The notes under the pieces are model-generated. The model ran no database searches. It had not been told where the DNA came from and saw only the letters and a program-made list of their open reading frames with translations. Position numbers and translations under genes: made by a program. DNA of 64,000 bases from Dictyostelium discoideum (taxonomy: Eukaryota). Below are positions 41,346 through 59,818 of this stretch, piece by piece; position 1 is the stretch's first letter, and each line of letters starts with the position of its first letter. The DNA is taken from positions 3,968,001 through 4,032,000 of the forward strand of contig CM000150.2 of NCBI GenBank assembly GCA_000004695.1. The letters run 5' to 3'.

Positions 41346-41414
41346 TAGATACATGTTGGGATTGGTTTTGTTTCTGGAATCGAACATGCGTCTGTTGACA
41401 TCACGAAAGAAAAG

Positions 41415-41497
41415 TCCGGCTTGCCAGATTCGAACTAGCAACCGATTGATCACTTTCTATACTACAGTCAATCGCGCTACCATTGCGCCAAAGCCGG
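41415..41497 (-). tRNA. tRNA-Tyr (anticodon GUA) with an ~11 nt intron 3' of the anticodon.
   Basis: Minus-strand sequence CCGGCTT-TG-GCGC-AATGGTA-GCGC-G-ATTGA-CTGTAG[TATAGAAAGTG]A-TCAAT-CGGTT-GCTAG-TTCGAAT-CTGGC-AAGCCGG-A. It has a 7-bp acceptor stem, a 4-bp D stem, and a 5-bp anticodon stem formed across the intron. The T-loop is TTCGAAT and the discriminator is A. It is followed by a T-run terminator (TTTTCTTTCG). Confidence 0.85.
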
Positions 41498-50579: not shown

Positions 50580-53077
50580 TTATACATCTAAATTCCAAAT
50601 TGAATTTGCTAATTCATCAATTGTTTGATAATTTCTAAGTAATGGATTATGTCTTGCAGCAGTTGTAAAAGCATCACAATGATGAATTAAAGTATATTGC
50701 ATAGCTCTTTTAATGAAATTTTGAGGATTTTCATTATAATAATCTAACCAACTCTTTTCATTTTCTTTGTTTGAATTTGGTAAAAGATATTTTGATAAGA
50801 AAGATTTTAATCTAACTTTATCCAATGCGAAGACCGAGATATAAAGTGAAACCAATTCATACCAACGATCACCAATTTTTGAGTCACCCCAATCAATTAA
50901 ATATTTTGGATCCCAAATTTTAATAGTTTTCTTTACTTCAACAAGTTTACAATCTTGATCGTCATTGTTTTTGCCTTTTTGATTTAACTGTTTTAATCTT
51001 GACGCTAAAGAATTCTTAATACCTTTTTTAGCAGATTTTGAAGTTTTATTTAATTTTTTAATTTTCTCTAATACTATTATTTCAGAGGTTGATTCAATAC
51101 CTAAAACATTTTCATCAGTTAAATCTGCATGAATAAAACATGGATCCATTGAATAATCTATTAATTCAGTTTTATCAATTGGTAAATAACTAGCCAATTG
51201 TGAACGAAGATGTGGAGGTAAACCATTCCAATTCCAATGATTTGAAATATATTTTGAATCAAGTGATAATAATTGATTTTTCCAAGGTAACCATTTATCT
51301 TTCTTATATTCATTTAATAATGATTTAATATTATCATCAATTAAAATTGATTGTTTTTCATTATTTTCAATATTATTATTATTATTATTATTATCATCAA
51401 TTTCAATTGAATGAATTAATGATACTTTTTCAACTAAGAAATCAACTAAATTGTCATCTAATACTTTAATATCTTCTTCTTCATCATCTTCGTCATTCTC
51501 ATCATCATTTTCATCTTCTTCAGGTGGTGATGGATATGGATAAGGTAATGAATCTGGTACAGGTTGAACATCTTGTAAATTTAAAGTATCTTTTAAATAT
51601 TCTGTTACAATGTACGGCCATTTCCATTCACATTGTAATTTATCACCTAATAAATCTTTAATATTACCATATGATAATAACTTTGGAAATGTTGAATTTA
51701 ATTTTGAATTCTCTTTAATCTTTGAATATAAGAATAACTCTGTTGACCATGACTTTTCACCACCCAATTCTGAACAATATAATTTAATAACATATTTTTC
51801 ATCAACAATGAAAACTGGACTTTGACCTGAATTTGGCATTTCTAAATATAATGTTGATTCTTTTGGTGGTAATTTAATTTGTTTTGATTTTACTTTTAAA
51901 TCTGAATCATCATCCTCATCCTCATCATATTTTTTACGATTTTCTTCTTTTTTTTTTAATTCTTCTTCTTCCTTTTCTTCATTTTTATTAATATTTGTTG
52001 TATTTATAAGTTCATCATTATCATTATTATTATTATTATTAATTATAATTGGTTTTTCATTAAATTTTAAATTTGAATTATTTAAAATTGATTTAATAAT
52101 TAAATCCCAATAATCTGTATCATCAAATGAATGAGTGAATTGATCATTTTTAAATTCAAATTGATTGAATTTATTTTGAAAATCAGGACGTGAAGTTAAG
52201 AGATGTTTTTTAAAATCATCATAATCTTTTTTTTGATCATTTGCTAAATCGGAACAAACTTCATCGAAATTTTGAGAATTACAAAAGTTTTGAGTTACTG
52301 CAATCGATTGTTCCATATTTAAAACCATATGCCACCAACCACCTGGTACGAATATAGTTTCACCAGGTTCTTGAATACATTCAATTGGACGATAGTCTGG
52401 TGGTAGGTAAGGGTAAACCTCTAATAGCCAAAGTAGGGATGGAGGTGAACCGTAGATTTTATCAACTACTTCGTCCGACTCTACTGTGTATGGTGTGAAA
52501 TTGGGTGGATACATTAACCAACGCTTTCTGCCAGATATTAGCGAATTCCAGGCACTCGTGCCGGCAGGGTCGATGTGCCACGAAGCACCGCTTCTCTCTG
52601 GACCGATTACAATCCATCGGAAATGGGGTCTGTGCTCTTCGCCATTATATTTAAATAAATCTTCAGGAAAGAATTTAGGTATATTATAATCGTCCAATAG
52701 TGATGGCACTTTCTCGCCAAATGCCTGATCGAATACATACAATGGCTCCTCATCAGTCTGAGTCTTCATATATTGACAATAGTCCCTAAACGTCATTTGA
52801 ATACGCTTATTATCCTGATGTGATATCTTGAATACAACATCACCACATCTCTCTATCAATCTCTCCTCTGACCATTCATTCTTCTCCATCATTGGTGTAC
52901 CTCTCTGTGCATTCTTAAATATAACCGGTATCGATGGTATCTCATACTCCCTTTGGAACTCCTCAACTGTCAACTCATCACTCTCAATATGTTTAACATG
53001 TCCGAAATCAACACCATAGTCTTTAACCTTCATATGTCTTCTTAACCATCTCGTATAAACTTCATGTGAATAGAAAT
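50580..53077 (-). CDS. F-box / JmjC (cupin, 2OG-Fe oxygenase-like) / aminoglycoside-phosphotransferase-like (APH kinase fold) tri-domain protein, exon 2.
   Basis: JmjC core ...WIVIGPERSGASWHIDPAGTSAWNSLISGRKRWLMYPP...GWWHMVLN. C-terminal APH-like block ...DPCFIHADLTDENVL...IDWGDSKIGDRWYELVSLYISVF. Same architecture as Arabidopsis At1g78280. Confidence 0.8.
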
Positions 53078-53150
53078 CTAAAGAAAATTAATTAGATTTA
53101 TTTATTAATTCATTCATTCATTCAATCAATATTTTAATGTTATAACTTAC

Positions 53151-53529
53151 CTGGAAAATGTAATGGAATATATGGTTTTTTAAATTTATTAAAAGAATTT
53201 GGATAAAGATATGATAAAGCACTAATTTTCCAATTTTCAATATATTTTACAAATTCTTTTCTACCTTTAATCTCTCTTAGGAATGCATCTTTCCAAAGTC
53301 TATCATCACCTAATAAAATATAAAATGCTGGACTAACACATTGATATTTCAATAGTTCACTACATGTGAATTCATTGAAAACAACGTTCAATAAAATTTG
53401 ATCCTCTAAAATTGATAATGCACCCAATGATTTAGTTCTAAGATCTGTTTCTCCAATTACAACTTTGACACCTTTTGAATTTATAATTTCTTGTTTTTTA
53501 TCTTTTTTATCTGGTCTTTTATAAAATTG

Positions 53530-53580
<51 letters not shown>

Positions 53581-53604
53581 TAATGTGTTTTTAAGAACTA
53601 CCAT
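53151..53604 (-). CDS. F-box/JmjC/APH protein, exon 1 (poly-N, then F-box-like motif).
   Basis: ...LGALSILEDQILLNVVFNEFTCSELLKYQCVSPAFYILLGDDRLWKD (F-box). Donor CCAG|GTAAGT (phase 1) joins TTCTTTAG|AT at 53078-53079. Confidence 0.7.
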
Positions 53605-54435: not shown

Positions 54436-54573
54436 ATACCCACCACAACAAGGTTACCCACCACAACAAGGTTATCCACCACAAGGTTATCCACCACAAC
54501 AAGGTTACCCACCACAAGGTTATCCACCACAACCAGGTTACCCAATGCAACCAGGTTATCCAATGCAACCAGG
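54436..54573 (+). CDS. YPPQ/KGFK protein A, exon 2 ((G)YPPQQGYPPQQGYPPQGYPPQQGYPPQGYPPQPGYPMQPGYPMQPG).
   Basis: Seven tandem GYPPQ(Q) units; both splice sites in phase 2; GG|GTATGT donor. Confidence 0.6.
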
Positions 54574-54716
54574 GTATGTAAATTTAAACAATTGTTTTTA
54601 TTTTATCTTATCTATCCCCCCTCTTCCCCCTCTTCCTTATCTTATTTTATTTTATTTTATTTTATTTTTTTTTTTTTTACCAATATTAATATTTATTTTA
54701 CTTTTAAATAATGTAG

Positions 54717-54909
54717 TGTTGTAGTTCAACCAAATATGTACCCACAAGGTCATCACACTGCTTATCCAGTTGGTTATGGTCATCATGGTAAATTCAAACA
54801 TAAGGGTTACAAGAAACATCACAAGAAACATAAGGGATTCAAAGGTTTCAAGAAAGGATTCAAAAAAGGATTCAAAGGTTTCAAGAAAACTTTCAAATAC
54901 AAACATTAA
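54717..54909 (+). CDS. YPPQ/KGFK protein A, exon 3 (VVVQPNMYPQGHHTAYPVGYGHHGKFKHKGYKKHHKKHKGFKGFKKGFKKGFKGFKKTFKYKH*).
   Basis: Frame continuous with exons 1-2. Basic KGFK-repeat tail also found in gene C. Confidence 0.6.
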
Positions 54910-55620: not shown

Positions 55621-55804
55621 ATTAATTACACCAGATATGTATCCTCATGGTAAACATTCAAGTACTGGATTAACAGGTTCTCACCATAATAAAGGAAAAG
55701 GAAAAGGAAAAGGAAAAATAATGGGAAAAGGTTTTAAACATAAAAGAGGTTTAAGTTTTAAACATAATCCAATCTCAAAAGGAATTAAAAAAATTTTCAA
55801 ATAA
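55621..55804 (+). CDS. Small protein B, exon 2 (LITPDMYPHGKHSSTGLTGSHHNKGKGKGKGKIMGKGFKHKRGLSFKHNPISKGIKKIFK*).
   Basis: Shares the MYP[QH]G[HK]H and basic KG-repeat tail with genes A and C. Acceptor AATAG at 55619-55620. Confidence 0.45.
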
Positions 55805-56670: not shown

Positions 56671-56845
56671 TTATATTCCACCACCTGTAGGTGTAGTTCC
56701 AATGCCACAAATGGGTATGCCAGGATGTCCACCAATGGTAGTTCCAATGCAACCACTTCCAGGACAATACCCAATGGGTGCTCCTTATCCATACAGTGGA
56801 GGCTATGGCTATGGTTATCGTGGTCACAAATTTAAGAAATTTAAA
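56671..56845 (+). CDS. Protein C, exon 4 ((G)YIPPPVGVVPMPQMGMPGCPPMVVPMQPLPGQYPMGAPYPYSGGYGYGYRGHKFKKFK).
   Basis: Acceptor CCAG|T completes Gly; donor AAA|GTTTGT, phase 0. Confidence 0.5.
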
Positions 56846-56959
56846 GTTTGTATTTAAAATAATAAAAAAAAAAAAAAAAATCAACAAATAGATTTTAAAA
56901 TACTAACTTTTTTTTTTTTTTTATTAAAAATAATAAAAATAATATTAAATATTAAATAG

Positions 56960-58153: not shown

Positions 58154-58256
<103 letters not shown>

Positions 58257-58323
58257 ATATTAAATAAAAGAAAAGAAAAGAAAAAGATAAAAAAAACAAA
58301 AAACAAAAAACAAATTAAAATTT

Positions 58324-58385
58324 AATGTGCAGACCAGAAGAGTTATTCGTAGATAGAATTAGTCCACATTTTATTTGTCCGATTG
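58324..58385 (+). CDS. RING / TRAF-type zinc finger / CBM20 (starch-binding) protein, exon 1.
   Basis: MCRPEELFVDRISPHFICPIG; donor G|GTAAGT, phase 1. Confidence 0.6.
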
Positions 58386-58552
58386 GTAAGTAATAGGTTA
58401 TATAATATTTAGTGTACATTGATTATATATTCCTAATAACAATAATTTCATATTATCAACTACAACTATAAATTCAACCACAATTACAACACAAATGATA
58501 ATGATAATAATGATAATAATGATAATAATGATAATAATAACCAAATAAATAG

Positions 58553-58833
58553 GAGGAGGTGTTATTGAAGATCCAGTTGTAACACCATGTGGTCATACAT
58601 TTTGTAACCCGTGTTTAATAAAATGGTTACAATCTAGGAGACAATGTCCGACTGATAGATTACCAGTTACAGATAAACAGTTGATTCAAAATTGGTTAGT
58701 TTATTATTACACTTCCGAACTTACTGTTAGATGCGATCATTATAATAAAGGTTGTTTATGGACGGGTAAGTGGTGTGTATTAGGTAGTCATTTAACACAA
58801 TGTCAAGCTGCATTTTCAAAGATTAGATTTTGG
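58553..58833 (+). CDS. RING/TRAF-ZnF/CBM20 protein, exon 2 (rest of C3HC4 RING, then TRAF-type zinc finger).
   Basis: (G)GGVIEDPVVTPCGHTFCNPCLIKWLQSRRQCPTDRLPVTDKQLIQNWLVYYYTSELTVRCDHYNKGCLWTGKWCVLGSHLTQCQAAFSKIRFW; donor TGG|GTAAAT, phase 0. The exact acceptor (58551/52 vs 58554/55) is ambiguous but both give Gly. Confidence 0.7.
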
Positions 58834-58964
58834 GTAAATAATCATCATCATTATTAATTATTAATTATTATTTATTAATTAATTAATTAATTTAAAATAA
58901 CCAATTAAATAACTTTTTTATTTTTTATTTTTTTATTTATTTTATTATTTTTTGTATTTTTTAG

Positions 58965-59243
58965 TTAAAATATCATGTTCCATTTGGACAACAAATTAGA
59001 GTTACAGGTAATTGCGATCAATTGGGTAATTGGGACCCAAAGAAATCATTCCCATTAAAATTTTTGCAAGGTGATACATGGGAAGGTGAAATTATTTTGG
59101 CACAAAGTGGAAGAATAGAATATAAATATTGTATTAGTTATTATGATACTGGTGAATTGGTGTATTGGGAAGCTGGTCCAAATAGAGTTATTTTAATTTC
59201 TGGTTCTTCAATTTATAGAAGAGATATCTTTAAAAATCCTTAA
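58965..59243 (+). CDS. RING/TRAF-ZnF/CBM20 protein, exon 3 (family-20 carbohydrate-binding module).
   Basis: LKYHVPFGQQIRVTGNCDQLGNWDPKKSFPLKFLQGDTWEGEIILAQSGRIEYKYCISYYDTGELVYWEAGPNRVI matches the CBM20 consensus (V.F.V.....G..V.V.G....LG.W.......L........W...V.LP.G..IEYKY.......V.WE.G.NR). Confidence 0.8.
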   Translation, partial: LKYHVPFGQQIRVTGNCDQLGNWDPKKSFPLKFLQGDTWEGEIILAQSGRIEYKYCISYYDTGELVYWEAGPNRVILISGSSIYRRDIFKNP

Positions 59244-59818
59244 AAAATAATTTAATAATAATAATAATAATAAAAATAATAAAAATAATAATAATAATGA
59301 TATGCAAAAAAAAATAAAAAAAATAAAAAAAATAAAAAAAAAATCATAGTCACAAATAGTCAATTTTTATAATAATAGAATATACATATCTTAAGGATAT
59401 CATATCTTATTTGTAAAAAAATAAAAAAAAAAAAACAAATAAAATAAATAAAGATGTTTAGAAAAAAAAATAAAAAAAATAAAATAATGGGAAATACAAA
59501 CCATTCCGACTATTAAAATTATCATGCCCAGCCAATTTAGTCAAATTTTTGAAAAATTTAAAAAAATAATTTTTTATTTTTTTTTTATTTTTTTTTAAAT
59601 TTTCAAAGAAAAAAGTTGAGGAAAACCATCGGTAATTCAAAAAAAAAAAAAAACTAAATTTATGCAATGGTACTAGTAATAGGTTATTATATAATATTCT
59701 CAATTCAATTAACCAAGTATTTGGGTAAACACCTGTCACTTTTTTATTTTGTTGTTATCATGATAACAACATTAAATTTACTGATTGCCCAATCAGCCTT
59801 TTACCAAAATAAAAATTT

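Follow-up and report, generated by a model that had tools for sequence, protein, structure and literature searches.

The 64,000-nucleotide stretch of Dictyostelium discoideum DNA analysed here (contig CM000150.2, positions 3,968,001 to 4,032,000 of the forward strand; hereafter the window) contains on its + strand a three-exon gene, DDB_G0270014, the spliced coding sequence of which (621 nt) encodes a protein of 206 amino acids that joins a TRAF6-type RING and zinc finger to a predicted α-glucan-binding module from family 20 of the carbohydrate-binding modules (CBM20). An initial annotation of the DNA had placed the gene at 58324–59243 and had proposed the fusion of a RING and a TRAF zinc finger to CBM20 in one polypeptide. 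The three exons were confirmed, with the ATG start codon one base later, at 58325, and a TAA stop codon at 59241–59243, and Pfam matches, an alignment to TRAF6 and fold matches agree on the fusion. The predicted product shows 100% identity to the D. discoideum protein DDB_G0270014 (GenBank EAL72357.1), publicly labelled 'hypothetical protein' or 'RING-type domain-containing protein'; the three-exon model is therefore the existing public annotation and not a new gene. We propose, with moderate confidence, that the protein is a RING-type ubiquitin ligase (E3) anchored on glycogen by its CBM20, which would ubiquitinate proteins of the glycogen particle or itself. The features of the locus are as follows.

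58325–58385, + strand: exon 1, codons 1–20 and the first base of codon 21, from the ATG to a GTAAGT donor at 58386
58328–58330, + strand: Cys2 codon, within the MCRxEELF motif of exon 1
58376–58659, + strand: RING domain, amino acids 18–56, spanning intron 1 (Pfam, TRAF6 alignment and fold match)
58385 and 58553–58554, + strand: Gly21 codon, split by intron 1 into G and GA
58386–58552, + strand: intron 1, 167 nt, GT..AG (GTAAGT...ATAG), phase 1, within the Gly21 codon
58553–58833, + strand: exon 2, remaining RING, linker helix, zinc finger 1 (TRAF6-type) and first CBM20 β-strand
58732–58803, + strand: C2HC zinc finger, equivalent to TRAF6 zinc finger 1 (ZF1), amino acids 81–104 (alignment to TRAF6 chains)
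58819–59201, + strand: CBM20 module, amino acids 110–193, spanning intron 2 (Pfam CBM_20)
58834–58964, + strand: intron 2, 131 nt, GT..AG (GTAAAT...TTAG), phase 0, between Trp114 and Leu115
58965–59243, + strand: exon 3, codons 115–206 and the TAA stop

Exon 1 encodes the invariant N-terminal MCRxEELF motif together with the first RING ligand, Cys18, and a ATAATGATA repeat lies inside intron 1. Intron 2 is not located at a domain boundary but within the first β-strand of CBM20; residues Lys110–Trp114 are encoded by exon 2, so that the module is whole only once spliced. The C-terminal CBM20 of the initial annotation was recovered, but not as the product of the third exon alone, since roughly its first five residues still belong to exon 2. 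An alternative acceptor at 58556, which would remove one glycine, was ruled out, as the orthologues carry three residues (G-K/G-G) at this place. The locus is very AT-rich, with a GC content of ~25–28% in three short blocks and of 8–16% around them; the minus-strand open reading frames (ORFs) within it are low-complexity AT-rich runs, and no RNA gene or tRNA was found in or near it. Thirteen residues remain C-terminal to CBM20. No signal-peptide-like N-terminus was evident by eye in the 206-residue protein, which is therefore presumably cytosolic.

Full-length orthologues of 206–209 residues, colinear with the window protein and ungapped at both exon junctions, were found in D. firmibasis (83% identity), Polysphondylium violaceum (77%), Tieghemostelium lacteum (79%) and Acytostelium subglobosum (62%), the last of which also has a second, partial copy. 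Further relatives are a 192-residue model from D. purpureum (79% identity), the C-terminus of which is cut short, and a fragment from Synstelium polycarpum. The partial Acytostelium copy (P0005) is nearer to the family consensus than the full-length one, and the T. lacteum cluster includes a 611-residue EukProt model (P0190) that is perhaps a merged gene. The D. discoideum protein is itself filed in a nominal '90%' cluster, the representative of which is the 83%-identical D. firmibasis protein.

Both introns occupy identical codon positions in D. firmibasis. The T. lacteum gene has intron 2 only (60 nt), intron 1 being absent, and the position of intron 2 is kept from group 4 Dictyostelium to Tieghemostelium. 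A T. lacteum Logan contig of 1,268 nt (run ERR3252990) agrees with its genomic counterpart apart from a gap of 60 nt lying exactly between the Trp114 and Leu115 codons, and the contig from this run holds an unbroken ORF of 207 codons. Since exactly intron 2 is missing from it, the contig is RNA-derived, and with its RNA origin read in this way the RING-zinc finger and CBM20 parts of the T. lacteum protein are spliced into one message. The junction is the predicted one, in agreement with the earlier supposition that the third exon is spliced to those encoding the RING. In the comparison with D. firmibasis the exons are 86% identical and the introns 41–52% (41% for intron 1), and the ratio of nonsynonymous to synonymous substitution rates (dN/dS) is 0.19 overall, 0.21 over codons 1–114 (RING and zinc finger) and 0.13 over the CBM20 part; both halves of the product are under purifying selection. 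The gene order is also conserved, with an opposite-strand JmjC gene and two small genes preceding DDB_G0270014 and a COPI_assoc gene following it. A spliced orthologue transcript, shared intron positions, low dN/dS and conserved synteny speak for one functional unit.

The N-terminal domain matched the Pfam models zf-C3HC4_2 (44.9 bits, cut-off 27, E = 1e-11), zf-C3HC4 (39.5 bits, cut-off 21) and zf-RING_2 (34.4 bits, cut-off 27.3). The U-box model also scored above its threshold (32.1 versus 21.4 bits), and the U-box of LubX was the top sequence match in the PDB; a U-box, however, keeps the RING-like fold without zinc, every ligand position being replaced. Since six Cys/His ligands and one Asp ligand are retained here, U-box identity was ruled out, and the domain is a zinc RING whose first loop resembles that of a U-box. 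Its ligand positions are occupied by Cys18, Gly21, Cys33, His35, Cys38, Cys41, Cys52 and Asp55, with Arg56 immediately after the last. Chains comprising the RING and ZF1 of TRAF6 (3hct, 5vnz) align over residues 13–108 with E ~1e-10, and in a residue-by-residue comparison with TRAF6 Cys70...Asp108 the seven ligands Cys18, Cys33, His35, Cys38, Cys41, Cys52 and Asp55 match the C3HC3D pattern of TRAF6. The label of a C3HC4 RING given in the initial annotation had to be abandoned, the second ligand position being Gly21 and the last ligand Asp55, as in TRAF6. The zinc finger that follows (C81-x6-C88-x11-H100-x3-C104) has its four ligands aligned with those of TRAF6 ZF1, and Cys81, Cys88, His100 and Cys104 are kept in every orthologue covering the region. 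No match to the Pfam zf-TRAF model was found in the 206-residue protein, and the designation as a TRAF-type finger, which had also been made earlier, is owed to the alignment to solved TRAF6 and to the fold; its equivalence to ZF1 in the structure alignment holds, a Pfam zf-TRAF match does not.

For fold comparisons with solved structures by Foldseek, the D. firmibasis orthologue (83% identical) was modelled with AlphaFold from 86 homologues; the predicted local distance difference test score (pLDDT) of this model averages 86.9 and reaches 96–98 over residues 1–100. The N-terminal half of the model superposes on the RING-ZF1 unit of TRAF6 (3hcu_A) with a template-modelling (TM) score of 0.89 and a root-mean-square deviation (r.m.s.d.) of 1.9 Å; LNX1/2, the dimerization domain of RAG1 and the TRAF5–TRAF6 structure 7l3l are among the further matches. 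The positions that usually contact the ubiquitin-conjugating enzyme (E2) are filled by Ile20, Trp45 and Pro53, and Arg56 (Lys in Acytostelium), which follows the last ligand, occupies the linchpin position. Assuming the roles that general RING knowledge leads us to ascribe to them, these are the residues expected of an active RING, and E3 activity is predicted.

Like TRAF6 and the TrafE-type E3s, DDB_G0270014 has a terminal Asp RING ligand (CP-x-D), a linker helix, a C2HC finger and an N-terminal extension packed on the RING, and the TRAF order of a RING followed by a TRAF-type finger was found both by alignment, through residue 108, and by fold. Unlike TRAF6, it is without further zinc fingers, coiled coil or TRAF-C/MATH domain, in place of which it carries CBM20, and it has a glycine as second zinc ligand, for which Cys2 is the candidate substitute. 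A test for a MATH domain gave no match at E up to 1, and the combination of TRAF coiled coil and MATH is not present. As it has no TRAF domain, DDB_G0270014 does not belong to the TRAF family.

The glycine at position 21 is present in all orthologues. It could have been an artefact of splice prediction hiding a cysteine, the codon being split by intron 1, but this was ruled out: D. firmibasis has the same junction, and in T. lacteum, which lacks intron 1, the transcript contig reads CPIGKG across the position and thus also codes for glycine. The N-terminal motif MCRxE(E/D)LF is conserved across all full-length orthologues. The relation between this motif and the missing ligand was followed in the best 150 of 12,969 matches (down to ~72 bits) from an exhaustive hidden Markov model search of 1.84 billion cluster representatives. 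Thirty RINGs of this sample are without the second ligand (C-x-I-G/D/N/K/Q), and 25 of the 30 have a cysteine 14–19 residues upstream of the first ligand, compared with one of the 78 canonical C-x2-C RINGs; when the four orthologues are left out, the figures are 21/26 and 1/78. The upstream cysteine lies in a motif of the form C-[RYF]-x-[ED]-x-[LI]-F, and canonical relatives, including TRAF6 (GYDVEF), usually carry a glycine at its position. Relatives with an upstream cysteine and no second ligand include P0012, P0026, P0029, P0030, P0057, P0066, P0077, P0097, P0113, P0118, P0121 and P0132. In zinc site 1, Cys2 of the N-terminal extension has probably taken over from the lost second ligand, and the domain is therefore probably still a two-zinc RING. 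We know of no description of a relocated zinc ligand in a TRAF-like RING subfamily that lacks the second ligand.

The loss of a zinc ligand in every orthologue could also mean that the RING is dead and that the protein acts as an adaptor, heterodimerizing with active TRAF-like RINGs and bringing them to glycogen, or as a glycogen cap or sequestrant. TRAF RINGs do form heterodimers with one inactive partner, as in TRAF5–TRAF6 (7l3l). On the other hand, the orthologues keep the remaining seven ligands as well as Ile/Trp/Pro at the E2 contacts and Arg/Lys at the linchpin, ligand loss co-occurs with a compensating upstream cysteine, the N-terminus is modelled as packed on the RING with a pLDDT of 96–98, and purifying selection acts on the whole N-terminal half (dN/dS 0.21). 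An inactive RING appears unlikely to us.

In the C-terminal half, the Pfam model CBM_20 (PF00686) matched residues 110–193, over profile positions 3–88 of 97, with 65.1 bits (E = 5e-18), well over the cut-off of 23.3 bits that this part of the initial annotation had to pass. The peptide encoded by exon 3 alone already matches the CBM20s of glucoamylase, maltotetraohydrolase, CGTase, β-amylase and human GDE5 among solved structures. The solved structure on which the C-terminal half of the model superposes best is the CBM20 of STBD1 with maltotetraose (8x8k; r.m.s.d. of 1.2 Å over 83 columns); other fold matches are 7czj (TM score of 0.79), CGTase (r.m.s.d. of 1.5 Å over 92 columns), GDE5 and glucoamylase. 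Trp137, Lys168, Trp182, Glu183 and Asn187 of site 1 align with Trp616, Lys651, Trp662, Glu663 and Asn667 of CGTase, of which Trp616, Lys651, Trp662 and Asn667 are established maltose-binding residues of site 1. A candidate site 2 is formed by Phe121, Phe147 and Trp153; Trp153 aligns with CGTase Trp636, and Phe147 may stand in place of the site 2 tyrosine of CGTase. The site 1 residues and Trp153 are invariant in every orthologue covering them, and Phe121 and Phe147 nearly so. By profile and by model, the C-terminal half is a canonical CBM20 and a predicted α-glucan-binding module, separated from zinc finger 1 by a linker of about five residues.

An end-to-end match was given by the dictyostelid cluster only (460 bits) among the best 150 of the 12,969 matches. 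Next among those listed came the Synstelium fragment, multi-CBM20 proteins, a DPE2-type GH77 enzyme and TRAF-like RING-zinc finger proteins, and in none of these 150 outside the dictyostelid family were both halves found together. Word-indexed searching of 5.8 billion proteins gave no additional full-length relatives, and the full-length family appears confined to Dictyostelia among the matches listed. For the orthologues, precomputed Pfam annotations already show RING and CBM20 together. In the literature searched, no paper was found on DDB_G0270014, annotated as a hypothetical protein, or on a RING-CBM20 fusion, which agrees with the initial view of the architecture as experimentally uncharacterized.

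The close N-terminal relatives differ in what follows the head. P0012 (264 residues, from a metagenome) has an MCR...CSIG RING-zinc finger head followed by DM9 repeats, P0026 (495 residues) and P0030 (580 residues) combine the head with a right-handed β-helix/NosD region, and the remaining ones are ordinary RING and zf-TRAF proteins. Since the nearest N-terminal relatives carry differing C-terminal modules, the CBM20 fusion would be one case of varied recognition modules placed on a RING-zinc finger head, in what looks like a habit of protists; the DM9 and β-helix fusions suggest a modular family of glycan-directed E3s in these organisms.

The closest functional parallel drawn in the initial annotation was to malin (NHLRC1) and laforin (EPM2A), and it survives by analogy, as a shared logic in which a RING E3 would be brought to glycogen by a CBM20 and would ubiquitinate proteins associated with it. 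It does not extend to the domains of the two proteins: DDB_G0270014 is one protein and not two, its TRAF-type RING is no orthologue of the malin RING, and its 206 residues gave no Pfam match to NHL repeats, leaving no room for six of them, and none to a dual-specificity phosphatase, CBM20 being C-terminal. It is thus neither a malin nor a laforin. Like STBD1 (genethonin-1), a glycophagy receptor that ties glycogen to degradation, it is a small CBM20 protein of non-enzymatic appearance; unlike DDB_G0270014, STBD1 is membrane-anchored, binds ATG8-family proteins and has no RING. The list of CBM20 partners given initially (amylases, laforin, glycerophosphodiesterases and STBD1) has meanwhile become outdated, as RNF213 is likewise a natural E3 polypeptide with a CBM20-fold domain (PMC11549300). 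RNF213, however, is an AAA+/RZ-finger ligase of ~590 kDa, the CBM20 of which is recognized by structure only, is positively selected and has unproven sugar binding (PMC11549300), whereas DDB_G0270014 has 206 residues and a sequence-canonical CBM20 under purifying selection. CBM20 has also been employed as a glycogen anchor for an E3 in the engineered FKBP-GFP-CBM20/FRB-HOIL-1L system (PMC13345935). That system is artificial, dimerizer-dependent and based on a sugar-esterifying RING-between-RING (RBR) ligase, while the fusion in DDB_G0270014 is natural, covalent and of the RING type. With RNF213 and the engineered CBM20/HOIL-1L pairing, the logic of combining CBM20 with an E3 is not unprecedented.

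In the mechanism proposed for a glycogen-anchored ligase, CBM20 would dock the protein on cytosolic glycogen through the Trp-Lys-Trp site 1 and the aromatic site 2, and the RING would recruit a charged E2; TRAF6-like dimerization of the RING could bring together two CBM20s and provide higher avidity. Ubiquitin would then be transferred to lysines of particle proteins (glycogenin, synthase, phosphorylase, debranching enzyme) or of the ligase itself, and the mark would lead to the turnover or regulation of glycogen particles or glycogen enzymes, a role analogous to that of the two-protein malin–laforin pair of animals. Glycogen binding, E3 activity, substrates and physiological outcome are all inferred from the sequence. 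The plausibility of such a CBM20-anchored E3 is supported by the engineered system, in which forced proximity of CBM20 and the E3 HOIL-1L in human cells resulted in glycogen ubiquitination and lysosomal delivery (2026; PMC13345935).

Several observations weigh against this proposal. Cys73 of TRAF6 faces Gly21, so that only seven of the eight ligands of a canonical RING are present, and the Fisher test relating the upstream cysteine to the lost ligand (p = 1.6e-18) ignores shared ancestry. Tyr633 of CGTase site 2 aligns with Gly150 in a gapped loop, which makes site 2 only partly canonical. The CBM20 fold of RNF213 is without demonstrated sugar binding, so that an E3 with an adjoining CBM20 is not necessarily targeted to glycogen. 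Finally, no expression or localization data for DDB_G0270014 were found in the literature searched, which included three developmental-transcriptome studies.

A role in immunity would assign a different ligand to the same architecture: CBM20 would sense foreign α-glucans, such as bacterial glycogen or mycobacterial capsular α-glucan, after phagosome damage, and the RING would build ubiquitin coats for xenophagy alongside TrafE and by analogy with RNF213. In favour of such a role, the N-terminal half falls in the same TRAF-like RING-zinc finger group as the zf-TRAF proteins, its closest relatives are joined to sugar-binding-type modules (DM9 repeats, right-handed β-helix), damaged Mycobacterium vacuoles are a site of action of the TRAF-like Dictyostelium E3 TrafE (PMC10181826), and the CBM20 fold of RNF213 has been proposed as a pathogen receptor (PMC11549300). 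The pattern of selection makes this role unlikely, however: whereas the CBM20 of RNF213 is positively selected, that of DDB_G0270014 has a dN/dS of 0.13 and ligand residues that do not vary across Dictyostelia. Such strong purifying selection is easier to reconcile with an unchanging endogenous ligand, such as glycogen, than with an arms race.

With glycogen as the ligand, a bolder version of the proposal is a single-chain 'glycogen ubiquitinator', the RING of which, with its relocated N-terminal Cys ligand, would place ubiquitin on glucose hydroxyls or on covalently attached glycogenin and so set off ubiquitin-dependent glycophagy. This seems improbable. Ubiquitin-dependent glycophagy has so far been shown only with the engineered CBM20-E3 pairing in human cells. 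Likewise improbable is that the ligase esterifies the glucose hydroxyls of glycogen in the way that HOIL-1L does, the resulting ubiquitin-glycogen being a signal for lysosomal or autophagic clearance. A RING merely activates its E2, and the charged E2 normally reacts with lysine amines; moreover, the sequence suggests no catalytic Cys/His site of the kind present in HOIL-1 and in the RNF213 RZ finger. The very short linker between ZF1 and CBM20 would keep the ubiquitin-charged E2 near the bound glucan, and recruitment of an E3 by CBM20 suffices in human cells, but the enzyme concerned is an RBR ligase with a catalytic cysteine of its own (PMC13345935). It is very unlikely that the CBM20 fold serves protein–protein contact or binds another polymer, making the link to glycogen spurious: some CBM20-fold domains, such as that of RNF213, are without proven sugar binding and the site 2 tyrosine of CGTase is unmatched, but the five site 1 contact residues and Trp153 are present and invariant, the 65-bit score was obtained on a model built from starch-binding domains, and the nearest folds are sugar-bound CBM20s.

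How cells select glycogen for ubiquitin-dependent handling is a question behind both Lafora disease (malin/laforin) and, through HOIL-1/RBCK1, polyglucosan body disease. If DDB_G0270014 is a glycogen-anchored RING ligase, Dictyostelia carry a conserved, one-gene natural counterpart of the engineered CBM20-E3 pairing, in only 206 residues, and the gene would be a tractable model: knockouts are routine in Dictyostelium and glycogen turnover feeds its development. The substrates of a glycogen-anchored RING and the control of glycogen breakdown would become directly addressable, and the probable relocation of a zinc ligand in the RING raises a minor structural question by itself. Fusion to a targeting domain is a normal route of E3 evolution. 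The idea of an E3 with a targeting module is thus known, and what would be new is its application to the ubiquitin handling of glycogen, present in databases as an unstudied protein. The reach of the finding is limited, with the family restricted to one clade among the matches listed and the function inferred from sequence and model.

In the surroundings of the gene, a perfect-looking (AAT)n microsatellite at 58154–58263 (36.7 copies, 96% matches) lies ~60 nt upstream of the start codon, and shorter TAA/AATAAA arrays are found at 59253–59344, just past the stop codon; the copy number of both is likely to vary between strains. The upstream neighbour (50580–53604, − strand) comprises ORFs of 817 and 154 residues with long Asn and acidic low-complexity runs, and its syntenic counterpart in D. 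firmibasis is a protein of 983 residues with Cupin_8/JmjC domains. Between this JmjC gene and DDB_G0270014, three short ORFs on the + strand (54545–54909, 55637–55804 and 56702–56857), located in GC-richer islands, encode Pro/Gly/Tyr/His/Lys-rich peptides, for example MYPQGHHTAYPVGYGHHGKFKHKGYKKHHKKHKG... and MPQMGMPGCPPMVVPMQPLPGQYPMG...; the syntenic place in D. firmibasis holds two small genes without annotated function, of 126 and 112 residues. The sole RNA gene found in the window is a tRNA at 41414–41497 (− strand; Rfam, 57.8 bits), to which ARAGORN assigns a four-base anticodon, '(gtag)', and no amino acid, and which is probably an intron-containing eukaryotic tRNA misread under bacterial settings.

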